From: Escherichia coli
GTDB taxonomy: Bacteria > Pseudomonadota > Gammaproteobacteria > Enterobacterales > Enterobacteriaceae
Reading direction: 5' to 3' (one strand)
Assembly: GCF_044647545.1 (NCBI RefSeq)
Contig: NZ_CP172818.1
Length of the DNA: 64,000 nucleotides
Numbering within the stretch: the stretch's first letter is position 1; each line of letters opens with the position of its first letter. The notes under the pieces were generated by a model that saw only the letters and a program-made list of their open reading frames with translations, had not been told where the DNA came from and did no database searches. Positions 6,294 through 64,000 of this stretch are shown piece by piece. The position numbers and the translations under genes were made by a program.

Positions 6294-8555
6294 ATGACAA
6301 TTCTTAATCACACCCTCGGTTTCCCTCGCGTTGGCCTGCGTCGCGAGCTGAAAAAAGCGCAAGAGAGTTATTGGGCGGGGAACTCCACGCGTGAAGAACT
6401 GCTGGCGGTAGGGCGTGAACTGCGTGCTCGTCACTGGGATCAACAAAAGCAAGCAGGTATCGACCTGCTGCCGGTGGGTGATTTTGCCTGGTACGATCAT
6501 GTCCTGACCACCAGCCTGCTGCTGGGTAACGTTCCGGCGCGTCACCAGAACAAAGATGGTTCGGTAGATATCGACACCCTGTTCCGTATTGGTCGTGGAC
6601 GTGCGCCGACTGGCGAACCTGCGGCGGCGGCGGAAATGACCAAATGGTTTAACACCAACTATCACTACATGGTGCCGGAGTTCGTTAAAGGCCAACAGTT
6701 CAAACTGACCTGGACGCAGCTGCTGGAGGAAGTGGACGAGGCGCTGGCGCTGGGCCACAAGGTGAAACCTGTGCTGCTGGGGCCGGTTACCTGGCTGTGG
6801 CTGGGTAAAGTGAAAGGTGAACAGTTTGATCGCCTGAGCCTGCTGAACGACATTCTGCCGGTTTATCAGCAAGTGCTGGCAGAACTGGCAAAACGCGGCA
6901 TCGAGTGGGTACAGATCGACGAACCCGCGCTGGTACTGGAACTACCGCAGGCGTGGCTGGACGCCTATAAACCCGCTTACGACGCGCTCCAGGGGCAGGT
7001 GAAACTGCTGCTGACTACTTATTTTGAAGGCGTAACACCAAATCTCGACACGATTACTGCGCTGCCTGTTCAGGGGCTGCATGTGGACCTTGTACATGGT
7101 AAAGATGACGTTGCTGAACTGCACAAGCGCCTGCCTTCTGACTGGCTACTGTCTGTGGGTCTGATCAATGGTCGTAACGTCTGGCGCGCCGATCTTACCG
7201 AGAAATATGCGCAAATTAAGGACATTGTCGGCAAACGTGATTTGTGGGTGGCATCTTCCTGCTCACTGCTGCACAGCCCCATCGACCTGAGCGTGGAAAC
7301 GCGTCTTGATGCAGAAGTGAAAAGCTGGTTTGCCTTCGCCCTACAAAAATGCCATGAACTGGCACTGCTGCGCGATGCGCTGAACAGTGGTGATACGGCG
7401 GCTCTGGCAGAGTGGAGCGCTCCGATTCAGGCGCGTCGTCACTCTACTCGTGTACATAATCCGGCAGTAGAAAAGCGTCTGGCGGCGATCACCGCTCAGG
7501 ACAGTCAGCGTGCGAATGTCTATGAAGTGCGTGCTGAAGCCCAGCGTGCGCGTTTTAAACTGCCCGCGTGGCCGACCACCACGATTGGTTCCTTCCCGCA
7601 AACTACGGAGATTCGTACCCTGCGTCTGGATTTTAAAAAGGGTAATCTCGACGCCAATAACTACCGCACGGGCATTGCGGAACATATCAAGCAGGCCATT
7701 GTTGAGCAGGAACGTTTGGGACTGGATGTGCTGGTACATGGCGAGGCCGAGCGTAATGACATGGTGGAATACTTTGGCGAGCATCTGGATGGCTTTGTCT
7801 TTACGCAAAACGGTTGGGTACAGAGCTACGGTTCCCGCTGCGTGAAGCCACCGATTGTTATTGGTGACGTTAGCCGCCCGGCACCGATTACTGTGGAGTG
7901 GGCAAAATATGCGCAATCCCTGACTGATAAACCGGTGAAAGGGATGTTGACCGGCCCGGTGACTATTCTCTGCTGGTCGTTCCCGCGTGAAGATGTCAGC
8001 CGTGAAACCATCGCCAAACAAATTGCGCTGGCGCTGCGTGATGAAGTGGCCGATCTGGAAGCCGCTGGAATTGGCATCATCCAGATTGACGAACCGGCTC
8101 TGCGCGAAGGTTTACCGCTGCGTCGCAGCGACTGGGATGTGTATCTCCAGTGGGGCGTAGAGGCCTTCCGTATCAACGCCGCCGTGGCGAAAGATGACAC
8201 ACAAATCCACACTCACATGTGTTATTGCGAGTTCAACGACATCATGGATTCCATTGCGGCGCTGGACGCAGACGTCATCACCATCGAAACCTCGCGTTCC
8301 GACATGGAGTTGCTGGAGTCGTTTGAAGAGTTTGATTATCCAAATGAAATCGGTCCTGGCGTCTATGACATTCACTCGCCAAACGTACCGAGCGTGGAAT
8401 GGATTGAAGCCTTGCTGAAGAAAGCGGCAAAACGCATTCCGGCAGAGCGTCTGTGGGTCAACCCGGACTGTGGCCTGAAAACGCGCGGCTGGCCAGAAAC
8501 CCGCGCGGCACTGGCGAACATGGTGCAGGCGGCGCAGAATTTGCGTCGGGGGTAA
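6294..8555 (+). CDS. metE: cobalamin-independent methionine synthase, 753 aa
   Basis: 753-aa ORF beginning [14 protein letters not shown]; canonical MetE. Confidence 0.96.
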
Positions 8556-8595
8556 ATCCCAAACTGGGTGGCAAACACCACCCGGTCTTTTCTCA

Positions 8596-9411
8596 TTACA
8601 GCGACTTCTTCCCACCATACTGTGTAAACCATTCCAACATTCGCTGCCAGCCGTCTTTCGCAGACTCGGCATGATAGCTCGGACGATAATCGGCGTTGAA
8701 CGCATGCCCGGCATCCGGGTAGACGATAATCTCTGCTTTCGCGTTTGCTGCCCGCAGCGCCTGGCGCATCGTTTCAACGCTCTCCTGCGGAATGCTGTTA
8801 TCCTGGCCGCCATATAAGCCGATAACCGGCGCGTTAAGATCGGTTGCGATATCAACAGGCTGTTTCGGTGAATTCAGCGTCTTATCGCCGGTTAATTTGC
8901 CGTACCATGCCACCGCTGCTTTCAGTTGTGGATTATGCGCAGCATACAGCCAGGTGATGCGCCCACCCCAGCAAAATCCGGTGATCATTAAGCGATGAAC
9001 ATCGCCGCCGTTGCGTGACGCCCAACTGGCGACATGATCGAGATCGGCCAGCACCTGCGAGTCAGGCACTTTTGCTACCAGACCGCTAAGCAGCGTAGGG
9101 ATATCGGCAAAATCATTCGGATCGCCTTCGCGGAAGTAAAGTTCAGGTGCGATAGCCAGATACCCCTCCAGCGCCAGACGGCGACAAATATCGCGGATAT
9201 GTTCATGCACGCCAAAAATTTCCTGCACTACAATGACCACTGGCAGTGGGCCATCGCTTTGCTTTGGTCTGGCATGGTAAGCAGGCATGTTATCCCCTTG
9301 TGAAGGGATAGAGGTGAAGCCCGCCACAATCGCGTCGTCCGGAGTCTGAACGATGGTCGAAGCGAGAGGCGATGCAGCAGGTGCAAATCCAGATTGTTGT
9401 GTTGTTGCCAT
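8596..9411 (-). CDS. ysgA: dienelactone hydrolase family protein, about 271 aa (start chosen at internal Met; track ORF extends to 9477)
   Basis: Alpha/beta hydrolase-like ORF convergent with metE; start position uncertain. Confidence 0.8.
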
Positions 9412-9672: not shown

Positions 9673-10515
9673 ATGTCCAAGTCTGATGTTTTTCATCTCG
9701 GCCTCACTAAAAACGATTTACAAGGGGCTACGCTTGCCATCGTCCCTGGCGACCCGGATCGTGTGGAAAAGATCGCCGCGCTGATGGATAAGCCGGTTAA
9801 GCTGGCATCTCATCGCGAATTCACCACCTGGCGTGCAGAGCTGGATGGTAAACCTGTTATCGTCTGCTCTACCGGTATCGGCGGCCCGTCTACCTCTATT
9901 GCTGTTGAAGAGCTGGCACAGCTGGGCATTCGCACCTTCCTGCGTATCGGTACAACGGGCGCTATTCAGCCGCATATTAATGTGGGTGATGTCCTGGTTA
10001 CCACGGCGTCTGTTCGTCTGGACGGCGCGAGCCTGCACTTCGCACCGCTGGAATTCCCGGCTGTCGCTGATTTCGAATGTACGACTGCGCTGGTTGAAGC
10101 GGCGAAGTCAATTGGTGCCACCACTCACGTTGGTGTGACGGCTTCTTCTGATACCTTCTACCCGGGTCAGGAACGTTACGATACTTACTCTGGTCGCGTA
10201 GTTCGTCACTTTAAAGGTTCTATGGAAGAGTGGCAGGCGATGGGCGTAATGAACTATGAAATGGAATCTGCAACCCTGCTGACCATGTGTGCAAGTCAGG
10301 GCCTGCGTGCCGGTATGGTAGCGGGGGTTATCGTTAACCGCACCCAGCAAGAGATCCCGAATGCTGAGACGATGAAACAAACCGAAAGCCATGCGGTGAA
10401 AATCGTGGTGGAAGCGGCGCGTCGTCTGCTGAAATTCTCTTTCTCCTGTCAGCCCTGGGTGAAGGCATCCCATCTTCATCTCCAGGATGCATTCACCGAA
10501 ATCGAATCGGGATAA
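9673..10515 (+). CDS. udp: uridine phosphorylase with a 27-codon C-terminal read-through; the expected stop position 10432-10434 reads AAA
   Basis: Translation matches Udp through ..VEAARRLL, then continues [27 protein letters not shown] to TAA at 10513-10515. Confidence 0.88.
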
Positions 10516-11690
10516 AACATCAAATAACTCCCCTCATAAATCTGGAAATCTAATTTTTTTTCAACTACTGCCCATTTCGCATTTGCCGGTAACCTATCAC
10601 ATGCATACCCTGATGGATCGCGTTTTCAGGCCGGTTCCATCGACACACCTGAATTTTTTCTCTTCGCCACGCATCACTTCGGCATTTCACCTTCTTTAAT
10701 CACCCAGCATGATTCAGCATTTCTCTCTGTGATAACACGTCAACTGCTTCGCCAGACCCTCGAATGACCGCAAGGTAAATAACTGCTGTTGCCACCCTTC
10801 GCACTCCGACATCCGCAAGCCATACCGCATGGGTTTTCGACCATCCCGCAGACACGTAAAACGTATCTGGAAACTCCTCACGTTTCTCCTGGAGGTAATT
10901 TCATGATCCCCAGAATTCACGTTTTTCTTTGATCTTGATTCGCCAAAACGCCATGCCCGAACGATGACTTCCCCATCCAGGATTAAATCTAAGTTCTGCA
11001 TTATCTTTCCTTTAATCATTTTATTTATCTTTCGGACGTCTTACCCCACCCATTCACGGATATCTCTTCTGCACAGGATTTGACGAAGTGCCACTTCAAC
11101 CCCACGACATATACTGTACTCGACAGAAATACCGCCACAATTTCATCCCGCTTGTAAACCCTCAACGCAACGGATATCGGCTCTTTCCTTCCAATCAAAA
11201 CAAAACCACTCCAAACGACGCATGTTCTAATAAAGCGCCCATTTTGTTTCATCACCACAGGCTTTACCGCCACTTTCTTCTTTCGTTAGATCAATCCTCC
11301 GATCCGTGATTCCATCATCGATCCTCTGACGCATTTCCACCCCCTGACTTTGATCTTCTCCAGATACAGCACTTCTCGCCTTCAACGATCCCCAGATGCA
11401 CGGTTCCAGTTAACCAACGTTCAAAACCGCAATTTTACACGAGTCTTTCCATCTCTCACTGAATCGATCATTTCACCCATTTACCCTCGTGACACGCAGT
11501 AACTTTTCCACAAACTGACTAAACATGTTTCTCCTCGTCCTGAACTCCCGATAATTTTAGTCACACGTTATAAACACATTAAGAACCGCCATCCACGTAA
11601 TAACGTTTCCGCCTCGTGTTGAAGAGGTTTCTCCCACTCACTTCTCTATGATATTCTGAATTTCCACATAATGACGTGGGGAAAAAGTGA
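10516..11690 (+). other. ORF-poor, G-depleted tract (top strand roughly 12-13% G, about 30% C) between udp and rmuC; origin and function unknown
   Basis: Hand counts on two 100-120 nt samples; only short ORFs (70-101 aa) on either strand, none resembling a known protein. Confidence 0.6.
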
Positions 11691-11696
11691 TATATC

Positions 11697-11725
11697 CCAC
11701 AATATAAACCCATCTCATATTGTGG
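11697..11725. promoter_or_regulatory. inverted repeat ccacaatat-N11-atattgtgg about 120 bp upstream of rmuC; candidate operator
   Basis: Perfect 9-bp arms read directly from the sequence. Confidence 0.35.
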
Positions 11726-11842
11726 ATAAATAATGAAAATTAACATTTTTGCGTAGCGCCTCGCAGGAAACTTCTTTCAAACTGGACGTTTGTACAGCAC
11801 AATTCTATTTTGTGCGGGTAAGTTGTTGCGTCAGGAGGCGTT

Positions 11843-21036: not shown

Positions 21037-21738
21037 ATGACAACCTTAAGCTGTAAAGTGACCTCGGTAGAAGCTATCACGGATACCGTATACCGTGTCC
21101 GAATCGTACCAGACGCGGCCTTTTCTTTTCGTGCTGGTCAGTATTTGATGGTAGTGATGGATGAGCGTGACAAACGTCCGTTCTCAATGGCTTCGACGCC
21201 GGATGAAAAAGGTTTCATCGAGCTGCATATTGGCGCTTCTGAAATCAACCTTTACGCGAAAGCAGTCATGGACCGCATTCTTAAAGATCATCAAATCGTG
21301 GTCGATATTCCGCACGGTGAGGCATGGCTGCGCGATGATGAAGAACGTCCGATGATTTTGATTGCGGGTGGCACCGGGTTCTCTTATGCGCGCTCGATTT
21401 TGCTGACGGCGCTGGCGCGTAACCCAAACCGTGATATCACCATTTACTGGGGCGGGCGTGAAGAGCAGCATCTTTATGATCTCTCCGAGCTTGAGGCGCT
21501 TTCGTTGAAGCATCCTGGTCTACAAGTGGTGCCGGTGGTTGAACAACCGGAAGCGGGCTGGCGTGGGCGTACTGGCACCGTGTTAACGGCGGTATTGCAG
21601 GATCATGGTACGCTGGCAGAGCATGATATCTATATTGCCGGACGTTTTGAGATGGCGAAAATTGCCCGTGACCTGTTTTGCAGCGAGCGTAATGCGCGGG
21701 AAGATCGCCTGTTTGGCGATGCGTTTGCATTTATCTGA
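21037..21738 (+). CDS. fre: NAD(P)H-flavin reductase, 233 aa
   Basis: [23 protein letters not shown].. ferredoxin-NADP reductase fold; internal ATG of track ORF. Confidence 0.93.
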
Positions 21739-21743
21739 GATAT

Positions 21744-21768
21744 AAAAAACCCGCCCCTGACAGGCGGG
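21744..21768 (-). terminator. intrinsic terminator downstream of fadA (hairpin ccgcccctgacaggcggg with T-run on minus strand)
   Basis: GC-rich hairpin followed by TTTTTTAT on the minus strand. Confidence 0.6.
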
Positions 21769-21817
21769 AAGAACGGCAACTAAAACTTTATACAGTGGCA
21801 TTTAGATCGTCGCATCC

Positions 21818-23098
<1,281 letters not shown>

Positions 23099-25288
23099 TT
23101 AAGCCGTTTTCAGGTCGCCAACCGGACGGGCTGGCTCAACCGGGGGATAGTACGGTTCGTTATGACGCGCTTTATTACGCAGACCTTCCGGCACTTCATA
23201 CATCGGGCCGAGGTGCTGATATTGTTGTGCCATATCGAGGTATTTTGCGCTACCGAGGGTGTCCAGCCAGCGGAACGCGCCGCCGTGGAACGGAGGGAAC
23301 CCCAGTCCGTAGACCAGCGCCATATCCGCTTCTGCTGGAGTGGCGATAATGCCTTCTTCCAGACAGCGCACCACTTCGTTGACCATCGGGATCATCATGC
23401 GGGCGATAATCTCTTCTTCGCTGAAATCGCGCTTCGCGTGGCTGACCTCTGCCAGCAGGTCGTCAACGACGGCGTCTTCTTCTTTCTTCGGCTTGCCTTT
23501 ACTGTCTTCTTTATAACGCCAGAAACCGAGGCCGTTCTTCTGACCAAAACGGTTGGCATCAAACAGCGCATCGATGGCATCGCGGTAATCTTTCTGCATC
23601 CGCTGCGGGAAGCCTGCTGTCATCACCGCCTGAGCGTGATGCGCGGTATCAATCCCCACAACGTCCAGCAGATATGCCGGCCCCATCGGCCAGCCAAACT
23701 GTTTTTCCATCACTTTGTCGATCTTGCGGAAATCCGCGCCGTCGCGCAGCAGCTGGCTGAAACCCGCGAAGTAGGGGAACAGCACGCGGTTAACGAAGAA
23801 TCCGGGGCAGTCGTTAACCACAATCGGCGTCTTGCCCATCTTGCTCGCCCATGCGACGACTTTCGCGATGGTTTCGTCGGAGCTTTTCTCGCCGCGAATA
23901 ATTTCCACCAACGGCATCCGGTGCACCGGGTTAAAGAAGTGCATCCCGCAGAAGTTTTCCGGACGTTCCAGCGCGTTGGCCAGTTCGCTGATAGGAATGG
24001 TTGAAGTGTTAGACGCCAGCACGGTATCCGGGCGTACTTTCTGCTCGGTTTCTGCCAGCACGGCTTTTTTCACTTTCGGGTTTTCAACAACCGCTTCTAC
24101 CACAACATCCACGCGGTCAAACCCGGCGTAGTCGAGCGTTGGGTGAATTGTGGAGATCACGCCAGCCAGTTTCAGACCATCGATCTTGCCGCGCTCAAGC
24201 TGCTTGTTCAGCAGTTTCGCGGCTTCGGTCATGCCGAGGGTTAACGACTTGTCGTTGATATCTTTCATGACAACCGGCACGCCTTTCCACGCAGACTGGT
24301 AAGCGATGCCGCCGCCCATAATGCCTGCGCCCAGCACAGCGGCCTGTTTCGGGGTTTCAACATCTTTGGTGAGTTTCTTCGCTTTACCTTTTACATATTG
24401 ATCGTTAAGGAAAATGCCGACCAGTGCGCGGGCTTCGTTGGTATGCGCCAGCGGGACAAAACTTTTGTTTTCCAGGTTTAAGGCTTCTTCACGACCAAAA
24501 CGGGCCGCAGCTTCAATGGTTTTTACTGCGGTGATGGGGGCCGGATAATGTTTCCCCGCCGTTTGCGCGACCATCCCTTTAGCGATGGTGAAGCTCATGG
24601 TGACTTCAATCTTGCTCAGTTTTAGCGGTTCCAGCTTCGGCTGACGTTTTGCTTTCCAGTCGAGGTCGCCGTTAATGGCCTGGCGTAAAATCGCCATCGC
24701 CCCTTCAACCAGTTTTTCTGCTTTGACTACGCCATCCACCAGACCGATTTTCAGCGCCTGATCCGCGCCGACATCTTTACCGGCGGCAATGATTTCCAGC
24801 GCACTGTCAGCGCCCAGCATACGTGGCATACGTACAGAACCGCCAAAGCCCGGCATGATGCCCAGTTTAGTTTCCGGCAGACCGATGCGCAGATCCGGCG
24901 TCGCCAGACGATAATCGGTCGCCAGCACGCATTCGCAGCCACCGCCCAGCGCATAGCCGTTGACAGCAGCAATGGTCGGCACCGGCAGATCCTCCAGGCG
25001 ATTAAACACGCTATTGGCAAAGTGTAGCCACTGACTTAACTGTTCTTCAGGAACGAGGAACAGGGACAAAAATTCGGTGATATCAGCACCGACGATAAAG
25101 GCTGCTTTGTTCGAACGCAGCAGCAGCCCTTTTAGATCTGATTGCTGTTCCAGCACGCCGATGGCCTCGCCGAGGCTGGCGACGGTGGCAGTGTCGAGTT
25201 TATTAACTGAACCTGGGGCATCAAATACCAGTTCGGCAATGCCATCTTCCAGCCAGTCAAGGTACAGGGTGTCGCCTTTGTAAAGCAT
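23099..25288 (-). CDS. fadB: fatty acid oxidation complex alpha subunit (enoyl-CoA hydratase / 3-hydroxyacyl-CoA dehydrogenase), 729 aa
   Basis: Start at [22 protein letters not shown] (internal Met of longer track ORF). Confidence 0.95.
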
Positions 25289-25313
25289 GTCAGTCTCCTG
25301 AATCCGCAAGGTG

Positions 25314-25330
25314 ATCTGGTCGTACCAGAT
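25314..25330. promoter_or_regulatory. FadR operator of the fadBA promoter (atctggtcgtaccagat)
   Basis: 17-bp near-palindrome about 30 bp upstream of fadB start, matching the remembered fadB FadR box. Confidence 0.7.
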
Positions 25331-25477
25331 GAATCGAAGTGTGTATTTTGTGTTAAAAATATGCAAACAAAAGATTAAAGAAATGCCGATCTGATCACGC
25401 TCGGCAGAAATCACGCTCTGGATGAACGATGTGCTAAGATGCGGAGACTTAAGGTCAAAAAAACAGAAGGGTAAAAA

Positions 25478-26809
25478 ATGGAATCACTGGCCTCACTCTA
25501 TAAAAATCATATAGCTACCTTACAAGAACGGACTCGCGATGCGCTGGCGCGCTTCAAGCTGGATGCGTTACTTATTCACTCCGGCGAACTGTTCAACGTT
25601 TTTCTCGACGATCATCCCTATCCGTTTAAAGTGAACCCGCAATTCAAAGCGTGGGTGCCGGTAACTCAGGTGCCAAACTGCTGGTTGCTGGTGGATGGCG
25701 TGAACAAGCCGAAACTGTGGTTTTATCTGCCGGTTGATTACTGGCACAACGTCGAACCGCTGCCGAACTCCTTCTGGACTGAAGATGTGGAAGTGATCGC
25801 GCTGCCGAAAGCCGATGGCATTGGTAGCCTGCTGCCTGCTGCGCGCGGCAATATCGGTTATATCGGTCCGGTGCCGGAACGTGCGCTGCAACTGGGTATT
25901 GAGGCCAGCAACATCAACCCGAAAGGGGTGATCGACTACCTGCATTACTACCGCTCCTTCAAAACCGAGTACGAACTGGCCTGTATGCGTGAAGCGCAGA
26001 AAATGGCGGTCAACGGTCATCGTGCGGCAGAAGAAGCGTTCCGTTCTGGCATGAGCGAGTTCGATATCAATATTGCCTATCTGACCGCGACCGGTCATCG
26101 TGATACTGACGTACCTTACAGCAACATTGTGGCGCTTAACGAACACGCTGCGGTGTTGCATTACACCAAACTGGACCACCAGGCACCGGAAGAGATGCGC
26201 AGCTTCCTGCTGGATGCCGGGGCCGAATATAACGGCTATGCGGCTGACCTGACCCGTACCTGGTCGGCAAAAAGCGACAACGACTACGCACAGCTGGTGA
26301 AAGACGTAAATGATGAACAACTGGCGCTGATCGCCACCATGAAAGCAGGCGTCAGCTATGTGGATTATCACATCCAGTTCCATCAGCGCATCGCCAAACT
26401 GCTGCGTAAACATCAAATCATCACCGATATGAGTGAAGAAGCGATGGTCGAAAACGATCTCACCGGACCTTTTATGCCGCACGGTATCGGTCATCCGCTG
26501 GGCCTGCAGGTGCATGACGTAGCTGGCTTTATGCAAGATGATAGCGGTACGCACCTCGCGGCACCGGCAAAATATCCGTACCTGCGCTGCACCCGTATTC
26601 TCCAGCCGGGCATGGTGTTAACCATCGAACCGGGTATCTACTTCATCGAATCGCTGCTGGCACCGTGGCGTGAAGGGCAGTTCAGCAAGCACTTCAACTG
26701 GCAGAAAATTGAAGCACTGAAACCGTTCGGCGGCATTCGTATCGAAGACAATGTGGTGATCCACGAAAACAGCGTGGAAAACATGACCCGGGATCTGAAA
26801 CTGGCGTGA
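25478..26809 (+). CDS. pepQ: Xaa-Pro dipeptidase (prolidase), 443 aa
   Basis: 443-aa M24-family metallopeptidase ORF. Confidence 0.95.
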
Positions 26810-27423
26810 TGGAAAGCTGGTTAATTCCTGCGGCACCGGTCACGGTCGTTGAAGAGATCAAAAAAAGCCGCTTCATAACGATGTTGGCGCATACCGATGG
26901 CGTTGAGGCGGCGAAAGCGTTTGTTGAATCGGTACGGGCAGAACACCCCGATGCCCGCCACCATTGCGTAGCGTGGGTGGCGGGTGCGCCGGATGATTCT
27001 CAACAGCTCGGTTTCTCTGACGACGGGGAACCGGCGGGAACGGCCGGTAAACCGATGCTCGCCCAACTAATGGGCAGCGGCGTCGGGGAAATTACCGCTG
27101 TGGTGGTGCGCTACTACGGCGGCATATTGCTTGGTACCGGTGGGTTAGTGAAAGCGTATGGCGGCGGCGTGAATCAGGCGCTGCGCCAGCTAACGACCCA
27201 ACGCAAGACGCCATTAACCGAATATACTTTGCAATGTGAATATAGTCAGTTAACCGGCATTGAAGCGTTGCTGGGGCAGTGTGACGGCAAAATTATCAAC
27301 AGTGATTATCAGGCATTCGTTCTGCTGCGGGTGGCGCTTCCGGCGGCGAAAGTGGCTGAATTTTCCGCAAAGCTGGCGGATTTTAGCCGTGGTTCATTGC
27401 AATTGTTAGCGATTGAAGAATAA
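26809..27423 (+). CDS. yigZ: IMPACT-family protein YigZ, about 204 aa
   Basis: ORF overlapping pepQ stop; conserved position before trkH. Confidence 0.88.
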   Translation: MESWLIPAAPVTVVEEIKKSRFITMLAHTDGVEAAKAFVESVRAEHPDARHHCVAWVAGAPDDSQQLGFSDDGEPAGTAGKPMLAQLMGSGVGEITAVVVRYYGGILLGTGGLVKAYGGGVNQALRQLTTQRKTPLTEYTLQCEYSQLTGIEALLGQCDGKIINSDYQAFVLLRVALPAAKVAEFSAKLADFSRGSLQLLAIEE

Positions 27424-34939: not shown

Positions 34940-34968
34940 CCACCTTTTTGCGTTGGTGCGGAATAAAT

Positions 34969-50558: not shown

Positions 50559-50583
50559 GAAGTTTCCCGAACAACTTCAACTA

Positions 50584-54206: not shown

Positions 54207-54239
54207 AAAAAACCTGCCATCGCTGGCAGGTTTTTTTTT
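54207..54239 (+). terminator. intrinsic terminator downstream of typA
   Basis: aaaaaacctgccatcgctggcaggttttttttt. Confidence 0.85.
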
Positions 54240-54405
54240 GCCTGTCGTGAGCGCACACCAATGCGAGTATCTCCCTTATAAGTCTGTGGTTACGTCAATA
54301 GAGAGCTTTGTCACAATTATCTGCAAAGTCATACGCCGTTAATTGCTTTCTTTTTTGGCGTAAGCGTAAGATGCTTCATCTGGTTTAAACCAAAAGGATT
54401 AAACA

Positions 54406-55115
54406 ATGGCGGAGAATCAATCCACCGTAGAAAATGCAAAAGAGAAACTGGATCGGTGGTTGAAAGATGGCATCACCACGCCGGGTGGAAAACTCCCTTC
54501 AGAAAGAGAGCTGGGAGAACTGCTGGGCATTAAACGTATGACGCTGCGCCAGGCGTTGTTGAACCTCGAGGCAGAATCCAAAATCTTCCGTAAGGATTGT
54601 AGGGGTGGTTCGTGACCCAGCCGCGATTTAATTACAGTCCGGAGCTGTCAGCGAGCTTTCAGCGGGCCGCAATTGAGCAAGGACGAGAGCCTTCCTGGGG
54701 GTTTACCGAGAAAAACCGTACCAGCGATATTCCCGAGACGCTCGCGCCACTGATCGCAGTGACACCATCAACTGAACTCTATCGCATCACCGGCTGGGGG
54801 GCGCTGGAAGGACATAAAGTTTTCTATCACGAAACATATATTAATCCTGAAGTTGCTCCGGGCTTTATTGAACAACTTGAAAACCACTCATTTTCTGCAG
54901 TCTGGGAAAAGTGCTACCAAAAAGAGACGGTAGTAAAAAAATTGATTTTCAAACCCGTCAGAATGCCGGGCGATATCAGCAAGTATCTTGGCGGTTCTGC
55001 GGGTATGCCAGCGATCTTAATTGAAAAGCATCGCGCCGACCAGCAAGGCAATATTGTCCAAATAGATATTGAATATTGGCGATTTGAGGCCGTAGACCTC
55101 ATCATTAATCTGTAG
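54406..55115 (+). pseudogene. yihL: GntR-family transcriptional regulator YihL, interrupted by a frameshift near 54590-54615 (ORFs 54406..54615, 69 aa, and 54612..55115, 167 aa)
   Basis: Two adjacent ORFs in different frames overlapping at gtga; together 236 aa, matching the remembered YihL length (N-terminal HTH plus C-terminal UTRA-like domain). Confidence 0.7.
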
Positions 55116-55122
55116 GTGTTTT

Positions 55123-56103
55123 ATGGTGACAATAAATAACGCAAGAAAGATTCTACAACGTGTCGACACTCTTCCTCTTTATTTACATGCTTATGCCTTT
55201 CATTTAAATATGCGGCTGGAAAGAGTGTTGCCTGCTGATTTACTTGATATCGCAAGTGAAAATAATCTACGTGGCGTCAAAATCCATGTTCTCGATGGCG
55301 AGCGTTTTTCTCTTGGTAATATGGACGATAAAGAACTCTCTGCCTTTGGGGATAAAGCCCGCCGTCTGAACCTTGATATTCATATTGAAACCAGCGCCTC
55401 AGATAAGGCATCTATTGACGAAGCCGTCGCCATCGCGTTGAAAACTGGGGCATCGTCCGTACGTTTTTATCCACGTTATGAAGGTAATTTGCGCGACGTA
55501 TTATCGATTATCGCTAACGACATTGCCTATGTACGGGAAACGTATCAGGACAGCGGCCTGACTTTTACGATCGAGCAGCATGAAGATTTAAAAAGTCATG
55601 AGCTGGTGTCGCTGGTCAAAGAAAGTGAGATGGAATCTCTTTCCTTACTGTTTGATTTTGCGAACATGATCAATGCAAATGAGCATCCCATCGACGCTTT
55701 AAAAACGATGGCACCGCATATTACCCAGGTCCATATCAAAGATGCCTTGATCGTTAAAGAACCGGGTGGCCTGGGTCATAAAGCCTGTATTTCAGGTCAG
55801 GGTGATATGCCGTTCAAAGCGTTATTAACGCACCTTATCTGCCTGGGTGATGATGAGCCGCAGGTGACGGCATATGGCCTGGAAGAAGAGGTTGATTACT
55901 ATGCGCCGGCGTTCCGCTTTGAAGACGAAGATGATAATCCGTGGATCCCTTATCGCCAGATGAGTGAAACACCATTGCCAGAAAATCATTTACTGGATGC
56001 GCGGTTACGTAAAGAAAAAGAAGATGCAATTAATCAGATAAATCATGTGCGTAACGTACTACAACAAATCAAACAAGAGGCAAACCATCTTCTGAACCAC
56101 TAA
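55123..56103 (+). CDS. yihM: xylose-isomerase-like TIM-barrel (sugar phosphate isomerase/epimerase family) protein YihM, 326 aa
   Basis: 326-aa ORF in conserved position. Confidence 0.85.
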   Translation: MVTINNARKILQRVDTLPLYLHAYAFHLNMRLERVLPADLLDIASENNLRGVKIHVLDGERFSLGNMDDKELSAFGDKARRLNLDIHIETSASDKASIDEAVAIALKTGASSVRFYPRYEGNLRDVLSIIANDIAYVRETYQDSGLTFTIEQHEDLKSHELVSLVKESEMESLSLLFDFANMINANEHPIDALKTMAPHITQVHIKDALIVKEPGGLGHKACISGQGDMPFKALLTHLICLGDDEPQVTAYGLEEEVDYYAPAFRFEDEDDNPWIPYRQMSETPLPENHLLDARLRKEKEDAINQINHVRNVLQQIKQEANHLLNH

Positions 56104-56204
56104 TAAGTTTTAACTCATACGCAGTTAATAAAACCATTCCATATGAATGGTCGGTATCTTATTGCCTTTAAAACAGTGATTTTAAAAATCGCTTAGGGGA
56201 TGTT

Positions 56205-57470
56205 ATGCTCACGAAAAAGAAATGGGCGTTATTTAGTCTATTAACACTGTGTGGCGGTACAATTTATAAATTACCGTCGCTGAAAGATGCGTTTTATATC
56301 CCGATGCAGGAATATTTCCATTTGACCAATGGTCAAATTGGTAATGCTATGTCGGTAAACTCATTTGTCACCACAGTGGGCTTTTTTCTGTCTATTTATT
56401 TTGCCGATAAACTACCGCGCAGATACACCATGTCATTCTCACTCATTGCGACAGGATTACTGGGTGTTTATTTGACGACAATGCCGGGGTATTGGGGCAT
56501 CCTCTTTGTCTGGGCGCTATTTGGCGTTACTTGCGACATGATGAACTGGCCGGTCTTGCTCAAGTCGGTAAGTCGATTGGGCAATAGCGAACAACAAGGT
56601 CGGTTGTTTGGCTTCTTCGAAACAGGGCGTGGCATTGTCGATACCGTGGTGGCATTTTCTGCGTTGGCAGTATTTACCTGGTTTGGCAGTGGCTTATTAG
56701 GTTTTAAAGCAGGCATCTGGTTCTATTCCCTTATTGTGATTGCCGTAGGCATTATTATTTTCTTTGTCCTGAATGACAAAGAAGAGGCACCGTCCGTTGA
56801 GGTGAAAAAAGAAGACGGAGCATCGAAAAACACCAGTATGACCTCGGTGCTGAAAGACAAAACTATCTGGCTTATCGCTTTTAACGTCTTCTTCGTTTAC
56901 GCGGTTTACTGTGGCCTGACATTCTTCATTCCATTCCTGAAAAACATCTATCTATTGCCCGTTGCGCTGGTGGGGGCTTACGGCATCATTAACCAATACT
57001 GTCTGAAAATGATTGGTGGACCGATTGGTGGCATGATTTCAGATAAGATCCTGAAATCGCCAAGTAAATATCTATGCTACACCTTTATCATTAGTACCGC
57101 TGCGCTCGTACTGTTGATTATGCTGCCGCACGAAAGTATGCCGGTCTATTTAGGGATGGCATGTACGCTGGGCTTTGGCGCGATAGTCTTTACACAGCGA
57201 GCCGTATTTTTTGCACCTATCGGCGAAGCAAAAATTGCTGAAAATAAAACAGGTGCGGCGATGGCGTTGGGTAGCTTTATTGGTTACGCTCCGGCGATGT
57301 TCTGCTTCAGTCTGTATGGCTACATTCTGGATTTAAATCCGGGGATTATTGGCTACAAAATCGTGTTTGGCATTATGGCCTGCTTCGCATTCAGTGGTGC
57401 GGTGGTTTCCGTAATGCTGGTTAAGCGTATTAGCCAACGTAAGAAAGAGATGCTGGCGGCTGAAGCTTAA
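56205..57470 (+). CDS. yihN: MFS-family transporter YihN, 421 aa
   Basis: 421-aa polytopic membrane ORF. Confidence 0.88.
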   Translation: MLTKKKWALFSLLTLCGGTIYKLPSLKDAFYIPMQEYFHLTNGQIGNAMSVNSFVTTVGFFLSIYFADKLPRRYTMSFSLIATGLLGVYLTTMPGYWGILFVWALFGVTCDMMNWPVLLKSVSRLGNSEQQGRLFGFFETGRGIVDTVVAFSALAVFTWFGSGLLGFKAGIWFYSLIVIAVGIIIFFVLNDKEEAPSVEVKKEDGASKNTSMTSVLKDKTIWLIAFNVFFVYAVYCGLTFFIPFLKNIYLLPVALVGAYGIINQYCLKMIGGPIGGMISDKILKSPSKYLCYTFIISTAALVLLIMLPHESMPVYLGMACTLGFGAIVFTQRAVFFAPIGEAKIAENKTGAAMALGSFIGYAPAMFCFSLYGYILDLNPGIIGYKIVFGIMACFAFSGAVVSVMLVKRISQRKKEMLAAEA

Positions 57471-57476
57471 TTAATG

Positions 57477-57560
<84 letters not shown>

Positions 57561-58253
57561 TCAGAAGAAATACTTCGTCCCGATACGAATCTGGTTTTGC
57601 TCGCGGTGGTACGGTTCGACATTACGATCTAACCAGCGCAATTCAATATAGGGCAACCAGTGCTCATTAATGCGATAACGGAAGGTGTTAGTGATTTCCC
57701 AGTGATGCTTCGTACCATTGCTGCTATTGAAATCATTAATGTTATAAAAATAATGCGGTTCAAAGGTATATGAGAACTTATCGGTAATAATAAAGTTCCA
57801 GTAGTTGCCAATCTCGTAGCTGTCATTATTATCCAGATCACCGTTCAAATCGGTTGAGCTGTAGTTATTATGGTTAAAACGATTACGTACCGTCAGGTTA
57901 AACCATGGAGTAAATTTGTAGTTAACATCCAGATAAACAGCACCACCCGAACCGATACTCTTATCATTAATTAAGCCACCGGGCTGGATGGTTAATTTAT
58001 CGGTTGGTTTGAATAACGGATACCAACCTTCGATTTCGTTATATCCATGTTTGAGTTCATCTTCTCGCTGAAAGGTGTAGGTATTGGTTAACATAATACC
58101 CGCGCCCATATCGAAGTTATAACCCACACGTAGCATAACCTCGCCCTGATCGGAGGCGAGATTATATGCCTCCCTGTTTTCGACGTATGCGCCAGCAAAT
58201 ACCGAGGCAGAGGTCAGAGAGGATAATAGAATTATTGCATTAATCTTTTTCAT
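57561..58253 (-). CDS. ompL: outer membrane porin OmpL, 230 aa
   Basis: MKKINAIILLSSLTSASVFA signal peptide, beta-barrel-like sequence ending ..GTKYFF. Confidence 0.9.
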   Translation of the reverse strand: MKKINAIILLSSLTSASVFAGAYVENREAYNLASDQGEVMLRVGYNFDMGAGIMLTNTYTFQREDELKHGYNEIEGWYPLFKPTDKLTIQPGGLINDKSIGSGGAVYLDVNYKFTPWFNLTVRNRFNHNNYSSTDLNGDLDNNDSYEIGNYWNFIITDKFSYTFEPHYFYNINDFNSSNGTKHHWEITNTFRYRINEHWLPYIELRWLDRNVEPYHREQNQIRIGTKYFF

Positions 58254-58319
58254 AATAAGTCCATTTTTAAACGTAGGGAGGCCGCCACCCACCAGGATGG
58301 AAATAGCGGCTATTGACAT

Positions 58320-63236: not shown

Positions 63237-63589
63237 AAATAATCTCCATAGAGTATAAAGCTAATATTTCATGCCATCCTGTTGTTACAGGTTTCATTAA
63301 TTAAAGATTGTGTGCTATAAATAAAACCCCATAAGTGATATATAAAAACTTTTTCAGCCCGGCGGATTGCCGCCATTTTTAACCAAAAATGCCAGTTACA
63401 ATAATAACTAACAATAAACGGAGCAGAATCCAGCCGGGAATTCCCATCCCTTTTATCAACATAGAACCGGAGGCAATCAGCAACAAAAAGACCATCACAC
63501 GGAACACTTTGACTGAAAGCGTTTATGCACATATCTCCAACAAGCGAACCGAGAATCAGGAAAACAAAAAACACCAGTTAAAAAAAGAA

Positions 63590-63950
63590 ACATCAAAATC
63601 CCCCCCCCCCGCCCCCCCCGCCCCCCTTTTTGGGGAAAAAAAGGGTCCGAGGCCCCGAATCCCCCGGGCCCAATTCCAGCATACCTACACCCCCGCCCCG
63701 CCCCCCGCCCCGCTCGCCGCTACTCGCCGATACGCCGCGACCATAACGTCAAAACGACAGACAAGAAATAAACATAAAAAAAAAAAAAAAGAAAAGGATC
63801 CCCCTACCCATTAAAAACGTACATACAAACACACAAACAAACAACAAAAAAAAAAATAACGCCCCCCCAACACAAAAAAAAAAACCCCAACAAAAAGAAA
63901 AAAAAAAAAAAAAAAAAAAAAAACACCCCCCAAAAAAAAAAAAAACATAA
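63590..63950. repeat. low-complexity, homopolymer-rich (poly-C, poly-A) sequence; probable assembly or read-end artefact
   Basis: Runs such as c11, a25, ccccgcccc repeats and acaaacaaaca, atypical of E. coli. Confidence 0.8.
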
Positions 63951-64000
63951 TATTTCCTGTTGTGTAAATACAACCCTAAACAATGATCTCGTTCTTTTCT

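Follow-up and report, generated by a model that had tools for sequence, protein, structure and literature searches.

Genetic organization of the yihL locus

The window, by which we mean the whole 64,000-nt stretch of DNA analysed, corresponds to the E. coli chromosome from recQ to yihQ and is collinear with K-12 at 4.006-4.069 Mb, with yihL located between typA/bipA and yihM-yihN. A yihL-yihM-yihN cassette was identified on the plus strand at 54237..57550. Within it, yihM (55123..56103, plus strand) starts 7 nt past the yihL stop and encodes a member of the TIM-barrel sugar-phosphate isomerase/epimerase family, and yihN (56205..57470, plus strand) encodes an MFS transporter; both genes are intact and 100% identical to K-12. 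The remaining gene, yihL, is divided between two plus-strand ORFs in different frames, which an earlier note had read as a GntR-family regulator gene broken by a frameshift and which are present exactly where it placed them. The first (54406..54615, 69 aa) carries native residues 1-64 of a GntR-type winged helix-turn-helix, followed by the aberrant tail CRGGS in place of the native RKGWF and a TGA stop. The second (54612..55115, 167 aa) runs from a GTG, the native V70 codon, to the native stop and encodes a linker and a UTRA effector/dimerisation domain. The two ORFs overlap as GTGA, in which the TGA stop occupies 54613-54615 and the GTG start 54612-54614.

The identification of the gene as yihL was confirmed by alignment of the ORF pair to K-12 b3872 (711 nt, 236 aa), which showed 99.2% identity and one gap of 1 nt. 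Intact YihL is thus 236 aa long, as the earlier note had stated, and the reference protein is not naturally of about 69 aa. The sum of the two ORFs (69 + 167 = 236) is correct as well, but the agreement is partly coincidental, the 69-aa ORF consisting of native residues 1-64 plus five aberrant ones and the 167-aa ORF starting from V70. The 69-aa ORF matches Pfam GntR PF00392 (E=8e-18, profile positions 2-61 of 64), with the last wing strand missing or aberrant, while the 167-aa ORF matches Pfam UTRA PF07702 (E=4.9e-22, profile positions 1-140 of 141). Because both ORFs match Pfam domains and jointly align to K-12 yihL with a single gap, the split is a real property of the sequence record and not a product of chance. 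With the frame broken at 54601/2, the GntR and UTRA domains do not lie on one polypeptide and the encoded HutC member is disrupted; straight translation of the window yihL meets nine internal stops. Against intact orthologues the indel is not divisible by three and introduces a premature stop, as in a genuine frameshift pseudogene.

The lesion itself lies at 54598..54602 on the plus strand, where the reference GATCGTAAGGGG has become GATTGTAGGGG (54595-54605). Aligned to yihL of K-12 and strain 504239, GAT-C-GTA-A-GGGG is replaced by GAT-T-GTA-GGGG: a C>T at 54598 (CGT>TGT, R65C) abolishes a GATC site, and of the reference AA only the A at 54601 is retained, a loss that shifts the frame by -1. 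The pairwise alignment with reference yihL that the earlier note had proposed therefore returns a single 1-nt gap plus an adjacent mismatch; the 1-nt indel that it held responsible is there, but the neighbouring C>T had been overlooked. The third change private to the window is a T>C at 54755 (plus strand), 154 nt downstream of the lesion; it is synonymous in the native frame (ATT>ATC) and turns GATT into GATC. An origin of the double change by a quasi-palindrome or template switch was considered and rejected. Inspection of the local sequence revealed no better hairpin after the change, and the nearby 7-nt direct repeat CGTAAGG would give a 9-nt deletion, not the observed lesion.

All six differences from K-12 in the yihLMN block are confined to a 167-bp patch (54598..54764, plus strand), outside of which the cassette is K-12-identical; 54765-57587 is 100% identical to K-12 MG1655. 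In the patch, the three private changes (54598, 54601/2 and 54755) are interleaved with three common strain-504239-type alleles (54650, 54683 and 54764). The private changes span 158 bp of a 3.3-kb block, for which the rough chance with three random hits is ~0.007, and both private substitutions are C<->T changes at the fourth base of GATY (GATC>GATT and GATT>GATC).

Occurrence of the lesion and of other yihL disruptions

In a survey of 5,426 complete RefSeq E. coli genomes, yihL was present in 4,421 and missing from 1,005 (19%). None of the 4,421 genomes with yihL carries the lesion, the best match reaching 97.8% over 91 nt with both differences remaining, and the lesion string gave no match in GTDB species representatives or in JGI metagenomes. 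Among ~15 billion proteins, the exact 69-aa peptide occurred on a single contig, a 4,499,902-bp NCBI record. Across these genomes, the GTDB representatives, the JGI metagenomes and the protein collection there is no second occurrence that would make of the lesion a pseudogene shared between genomes. Similarly, the 54755C allele was not found in GTDB representatives or JGI metagenomes, and no complete genome is identical to the window over 54615-54800.

Public assemblies contain at least seven other independent yihL lesions, namely an IS110-family insertion, +T, +G, TGG>TAG, GAA>TAA and 1-nt deletions at 54571 and 54583, in a sample that was retrieved via the 167-aa ORF and is hence biased towards lesions near the same site. 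An identical 167-aa product is called in other assemblies carrying different upstream lesions. The lesions of other assemblies fall within ~40 nt of the window's spot (834-1830 in locus L003; near 1950-2010 in loci L005, L006 and L008-L011), the IS110-family insertion sitting after CGTAAG. Several of these loci also have a frameshifted yihM or yihN, and some of the other yihL lesions are therefore likely sequencing errors. The Keio deletion of yihL is in use as a neutral linked marker (PMC4759930). Given that the gene is dispensable and frequently lost, a real lesion would be unremarkable.

The cassette, its backbone and other anomalies in the window

Outside its accessory segments, the window has a backbone that hardly differs from strain ST648 (NZ_CP008697.1) and FDAARGOS_497, showing only two coding substitutions relative to them outside island junctions; 11800-29800 matches the ST648 lineage at 100.0%. 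Shigella-type genome decay, which came into consideration as the window had no exact match among RefSeq E. coli genomes, was rejected in view of this backbone, the collinear gene order and the lack of IS elements. All five lineage-specific accessory segments of the region are absent, replaced or garbled. The rpn nuclease gene, found between rhtC and rhtB in the ST648 lineage, is missing, and its empty site (1733-1782) is K-12-like without being identical. Also missing is an 8-kb metE-ysgA island (LysR regulator, cytosine permease, arcC, fdrA and others), whose empty junction (8552-8603) is again K-12-like but not identical and has no match of >=99% in any complete genome (best 97.3%).

At the third segment, the udp-rmuC island (5.6 kb; TctABC transporter, dgoA/dgoK-like genes and an IclR regulator), present in 1,456 of the 5,426 genomes, is cut to a 1.3-kb remnant at 10429-11747 that retains only the 3' part of the kinase gene and the IclR gene. 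Compared with an intact copy, this remnant has 134 gap openings and 259 deleted bases, 171 of them G, with none inserted, and 65 of its 87 substitutions are from G (G>N); the plus strand is down to 12-17% G, while the flanks are 100% conserved. The remnant is probably a consensus artefact and not natural decay. An IS element had been considered for this insert and was ruled out, the insert being the remnant of a known island. The fourth segment is the typA-ompL cassette, which is swapped relative to the ST648 lineage. At the fifth, the TauE/SafE-family gene found between yihQ and yihR in the lineage is garbled at 63308-64000, with many deletions, long C- and A-runs, 41% A and 13% G.

The swap at typA-ompL concerns a site (54237-57550 in the window; 21519-27323 in locus L017) at which E. 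coli carries alternative cassettes, either yihLMN (yihL in 4,421 of 5,426 genomes) or a HAD hydrolase plus the STM4011-4015 radical-SAM cassette (ST648 lineage). Strain ST648, FDAARGOS_497 and MS6198 have the HAD hydrolase + STM4011-4015 between typA and ompL, without yihLMN. No complete genome pairs the window's backbone with yihLMN, the best match for 40000-64000 being 97.8%, and both junctions between cassette and backbone lie within ~13-37 bp of the homology edges. By its sequence, the yihLMN cassette is foreign to the backbone lineage of the window. The neighbouring ompL allele (57561-58319) has 89.8% identity to K-12 with two compensating 1-nt indels and equals the ST648-lineage allele; its longest ORF reaches upstream of the K-12 start (252 aa vs 230 aa).

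Smaller anomalies were observed as well. At 34940-34944, an untidy 43-nt deletion private to the window removes the last ~10 nt of the 5S rRNA (rrfA) and the rrn terminator hairpin, which are full in ST648 and FDAARGOS_497. The glnA-glnL intergenic region, which corresponds to the 3' end of glnA and, in K-12, to the GlnZ sRNA area, has lost the glnA terminator hairpin CCCGGCGTTGTTGCGCCGGG at 50560-50570 through a 35-nt deletion that is accompanied by small substitutions and private to the window; here K-12 is 147 nt and the ST648 lineage 35 nt longer than the window. A 3-nt (TAT) deletion at 21809, in the REP-containing fre-fadA intergenic region, is not shared by K-12, ST648 or FDAARGOS_497. 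The source record measures 4.50 Mb, as against 5.06-5.23 Mb for ST648 and FDAARGOS_497, which suggests that lineage-specific DNA is missing from this record throughout the genome. Natural processes cannot have given rise to these anomalies in a clone with an almost SNP-free coding sequence. They are consistent with a consensus, whether reference-guided, mixed-strain or of low coverage, that breaks down wherever DNA varies between strains or forms hairpins.

YihL as a putative repressor and the predicted effect of the lesion

YihL is experimentally uncharacterised (PMC9308461, PMC8464067, PMC4797297), and the literature search returned only candidate lists and the use of the Keio deletion as a marker. 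By proposing to measure expression of the sulfoquinovose genes, the earlier note had implied a connection with them that finds no support: the sulfoquinovose cassette is ompL-yihOPQRSTUVW, without yihLMN, and is under the repressor YihW/CsqR (PMC12608037, PMC10991401), whereas YihL is uncharacterised (PMC9308461, PMC8464067). No link of YihL to that cassette was found in the literature searched, nor does YihL belong among its regulators.

In the related repressor NagR, G-5 and G-4 of the dre operator are recognized by Arg38 and Arg48, and the wing inserts Gly69 into the minor groove (PMC4333415). In our alignment, these arginines correspond to R34 and R44 of YihL. A candidate operator for YihL is a perfect 12-bp palindrome, TGGTTTAAACCA, located 14 nt upstream of the yihL ATG (54381..54392, no strand assigned). 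The window contains no other perfect copy of this palindrome, which is unchanged in K-12 and strain 504239 and resembles the NagR/DasR dre core GTGGTCTAGACCAC with G-5 and G-4 kept; no published test of it was found in the literature searched. By analogy, YihL may bind this dre-like palindrome upstream of yihLMN, and we infer a putative autoregulated yihLMN operon with YihL as a HutC-type GntR repressor.

In the window allele, the first aberrant residue is precisely the one that aligns with NagR Gly69, and no second wing strand (WFV) remains. In the HutC family, the UTRA domain is responsible for dimerisation and the effector response. If real and translated as written, the window yihL would be a loss-of-function allele, because the DNA-binding wing is truncated and the DNA-binding domain is separated from the effector/dimerisation domain; it would yield an HTH fragment that is monomeric and lacks the wing, and a UTRA domain unable to recognize DNA. 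Under the repressor model, loss of YihL would leave yihM and yihN constitutively expressed.

Origin of the split gene

The earlier note had offered genuine pseudogenisation and sequencing error as explanations; these remain the two live options, and either would be a known, ordinary kind of event. The non-biological anomalies nearby shift the balance towards the latter, and we lean, with modest confidence, towards the yihL lesion being a consensus or assembly artefact, because it is private, the changes are clustered, the block is a foreign patchwork, the substitutions are C<->T at GATY and pathologies surround it. In fact, the lesion is confined to a single assembly and the same record holds other error-like anomalies, the combination expected of an artefact. 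A sequencing-chemistry or methylation artefact would probably account for C<->T changes at GATY more readily than any known mutational process. The source assembly would be a reconstruction of an ST648-lineage strain whose accessory DNA was badly handled, perhaps by reference-guided filling, or by a mixed-strain or low-coverage consensus. K-12-type yihLMN would have been placed where the lineage carries a different cassette, and the short 167-bp stretch may have been called from very few, error-bearing or foreign reads, resulting in clustered private changes. We infer that the lesion and the other anomalies of the window share a common cause. Nevertheless, the assembly is not generally riddled with indels, since yihL is the sole frame break in the 52 K-12 genes of the window; general indel noise was accordingly rejected, with no further frameshift in the other 51. 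Moreover, the deletion falls in an AA dinucleotide and not in a long homopolymer, the A7 and T-runs of the block are correct, and the other 2.8 kb of yihLMN are without errors. A window-wide error signature at methylation motifs was also rejected: 13 of 236 GATC and 18 of 147 CCWGG sites are altered relative to K-12, which is no preferential change and no enrichment over other 4-mers or 5-mers, and only the two private yihL substitutions fall on GATY. The dispensability of yihL and its frequent loss count on the same side.

Those points lend an appreciable, though less than even, chance to a genuine strain-private pseudogenisation of yihL by a real 1-nt deletion; it could have arisen together with the adjacent C>T in a single complex event, or have come in on a short recombination patch. 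The alignment to the intact gene shows one clean gap at a non-homopolymeric site with 51 neighbouring genes free of frameshifts, the gene is non-essential (PMC4759930), missing from 19% of complete genomes and independently disrupted elsewhere, and mosaic alleles and cassette swaps are natural at typA-ompL in E. coli. The repressor model that goes with this reading is drawn from the NagR/DasR homology, the conserved Arg34 and Arg44 and the dre-like palindrome (PMC4333415); the regulatory role of YihL is putative (PMC9308461, PMC8464067). Against a real deletion, the lesion, 54755C and the allele mosaic were found nowhere else among the collections searched, three private changes crowd into 158 bp, the cassette is foreign to an otherwise clonal backbone with both crossovers hugging the homology edges, and the same 64 kb contains sequence that is impossible by natural decay. 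That lesion and cassette are both real, an ST648-type clone having recently exchanged STM4011-4015 for a K-12-type yihLMN and its repressor having lost function in the course of the transfer or shortly afterwards, seems improbable to us. If this is true, the yihN transporter and the yihM isomerase would be constitutively on, in a regulatory rewiring through cassette exchange and repressor loss.

Two further explanations would preserve a functional YihL. It is very unlikely that the HTH and UTRA halves are translated as coupled polypeptides that still regulate together. The TGA/GTG overlap, an SD-like AGGGG at 54601-54605, 6 nt upstream, and the choice of the same 167-aa ORF by gene callers in other assemblies would suit such a split gene, but the wing is lost from the position aligned with NagR Gly69 (R65C, K66R, W68G, F69S, stop), HutC dimerisation and allostery require a covalent link to UTRA, and no other genome has kept the arrangement, hence there is no sign of selection. 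Programmed -1 ribosomal frameshifting restoring full-length YihL has a negligible chance. Nothing more than the geometry of the ORF overlap and a rare AGG codon at the site speaks for it, whereas yihL is in a single frame in all 4,421 other genomes, 54598-54615 contains no X XXY YYZ slippery heptamer, and a conserved downstream structure is not to be expected for a private lesion; as the two-frame arrangement is not conserved, this explanation is effectively refuted.

Whether real or an error, a frameshift that is private to one record and hits a dispensable, uncharacterised regulator is commonplace and biologically minor. Of wider concern is that, in this record, accessory DNA that is garbled or reference-like accompanies a clonal backbone. 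Presence/absence and pseudogene calls from it, yihLMN included, are unfit for comparative or evolutionary claims before the reads are checked. As a minor by-product, an operator that can be put to experimental test is predicted for the unstudied E. coli regulator YihL.

Comparison with known systems

K-12 YihL (b3872), a putative GntR-family regulator, is the same gene in the same locus order, typA-yihL-yihM-yihN-ompL. K-12 and the 4,421 other genomes have one 236-aa frame, in contrast to the 69-aa and 167-aa ORFs of the window. The solved HutC-subfamily GntR repressors NagR/YvoA of B. subtilis and DasR of Streptomyces share the wHTH + UTRA architecture of YihL, whose best PDB sequence matches are 2WV0/4U0V (E ~5e-13) and 4ZS8. 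They differ from it in that sequence similarity is only ~30%, the wing tip is KDRKG against LKGRG, and the effector, operator and targets of YihL are putative.

The other disrupted yihL alleles lead to the same outcome as in the window, an N-terminal fragment plus an identical 167-aa ORF, but every lesion is distinct, none equals that of the window, and some may be sequencing errors. Assemblies that are reference-guided, of mixed strains or based on long reads at low coverage show comparable frameshift artefacts, in the form of a private 1-base deletion with neighbouring transitions. The window shares with such assemblies the deletion-only garbling of variable islands, the loss of hairpins and the reference-like sequence where the strain differs; unlike a generally poor assembly, its coding sequence is elsewhere error-free.
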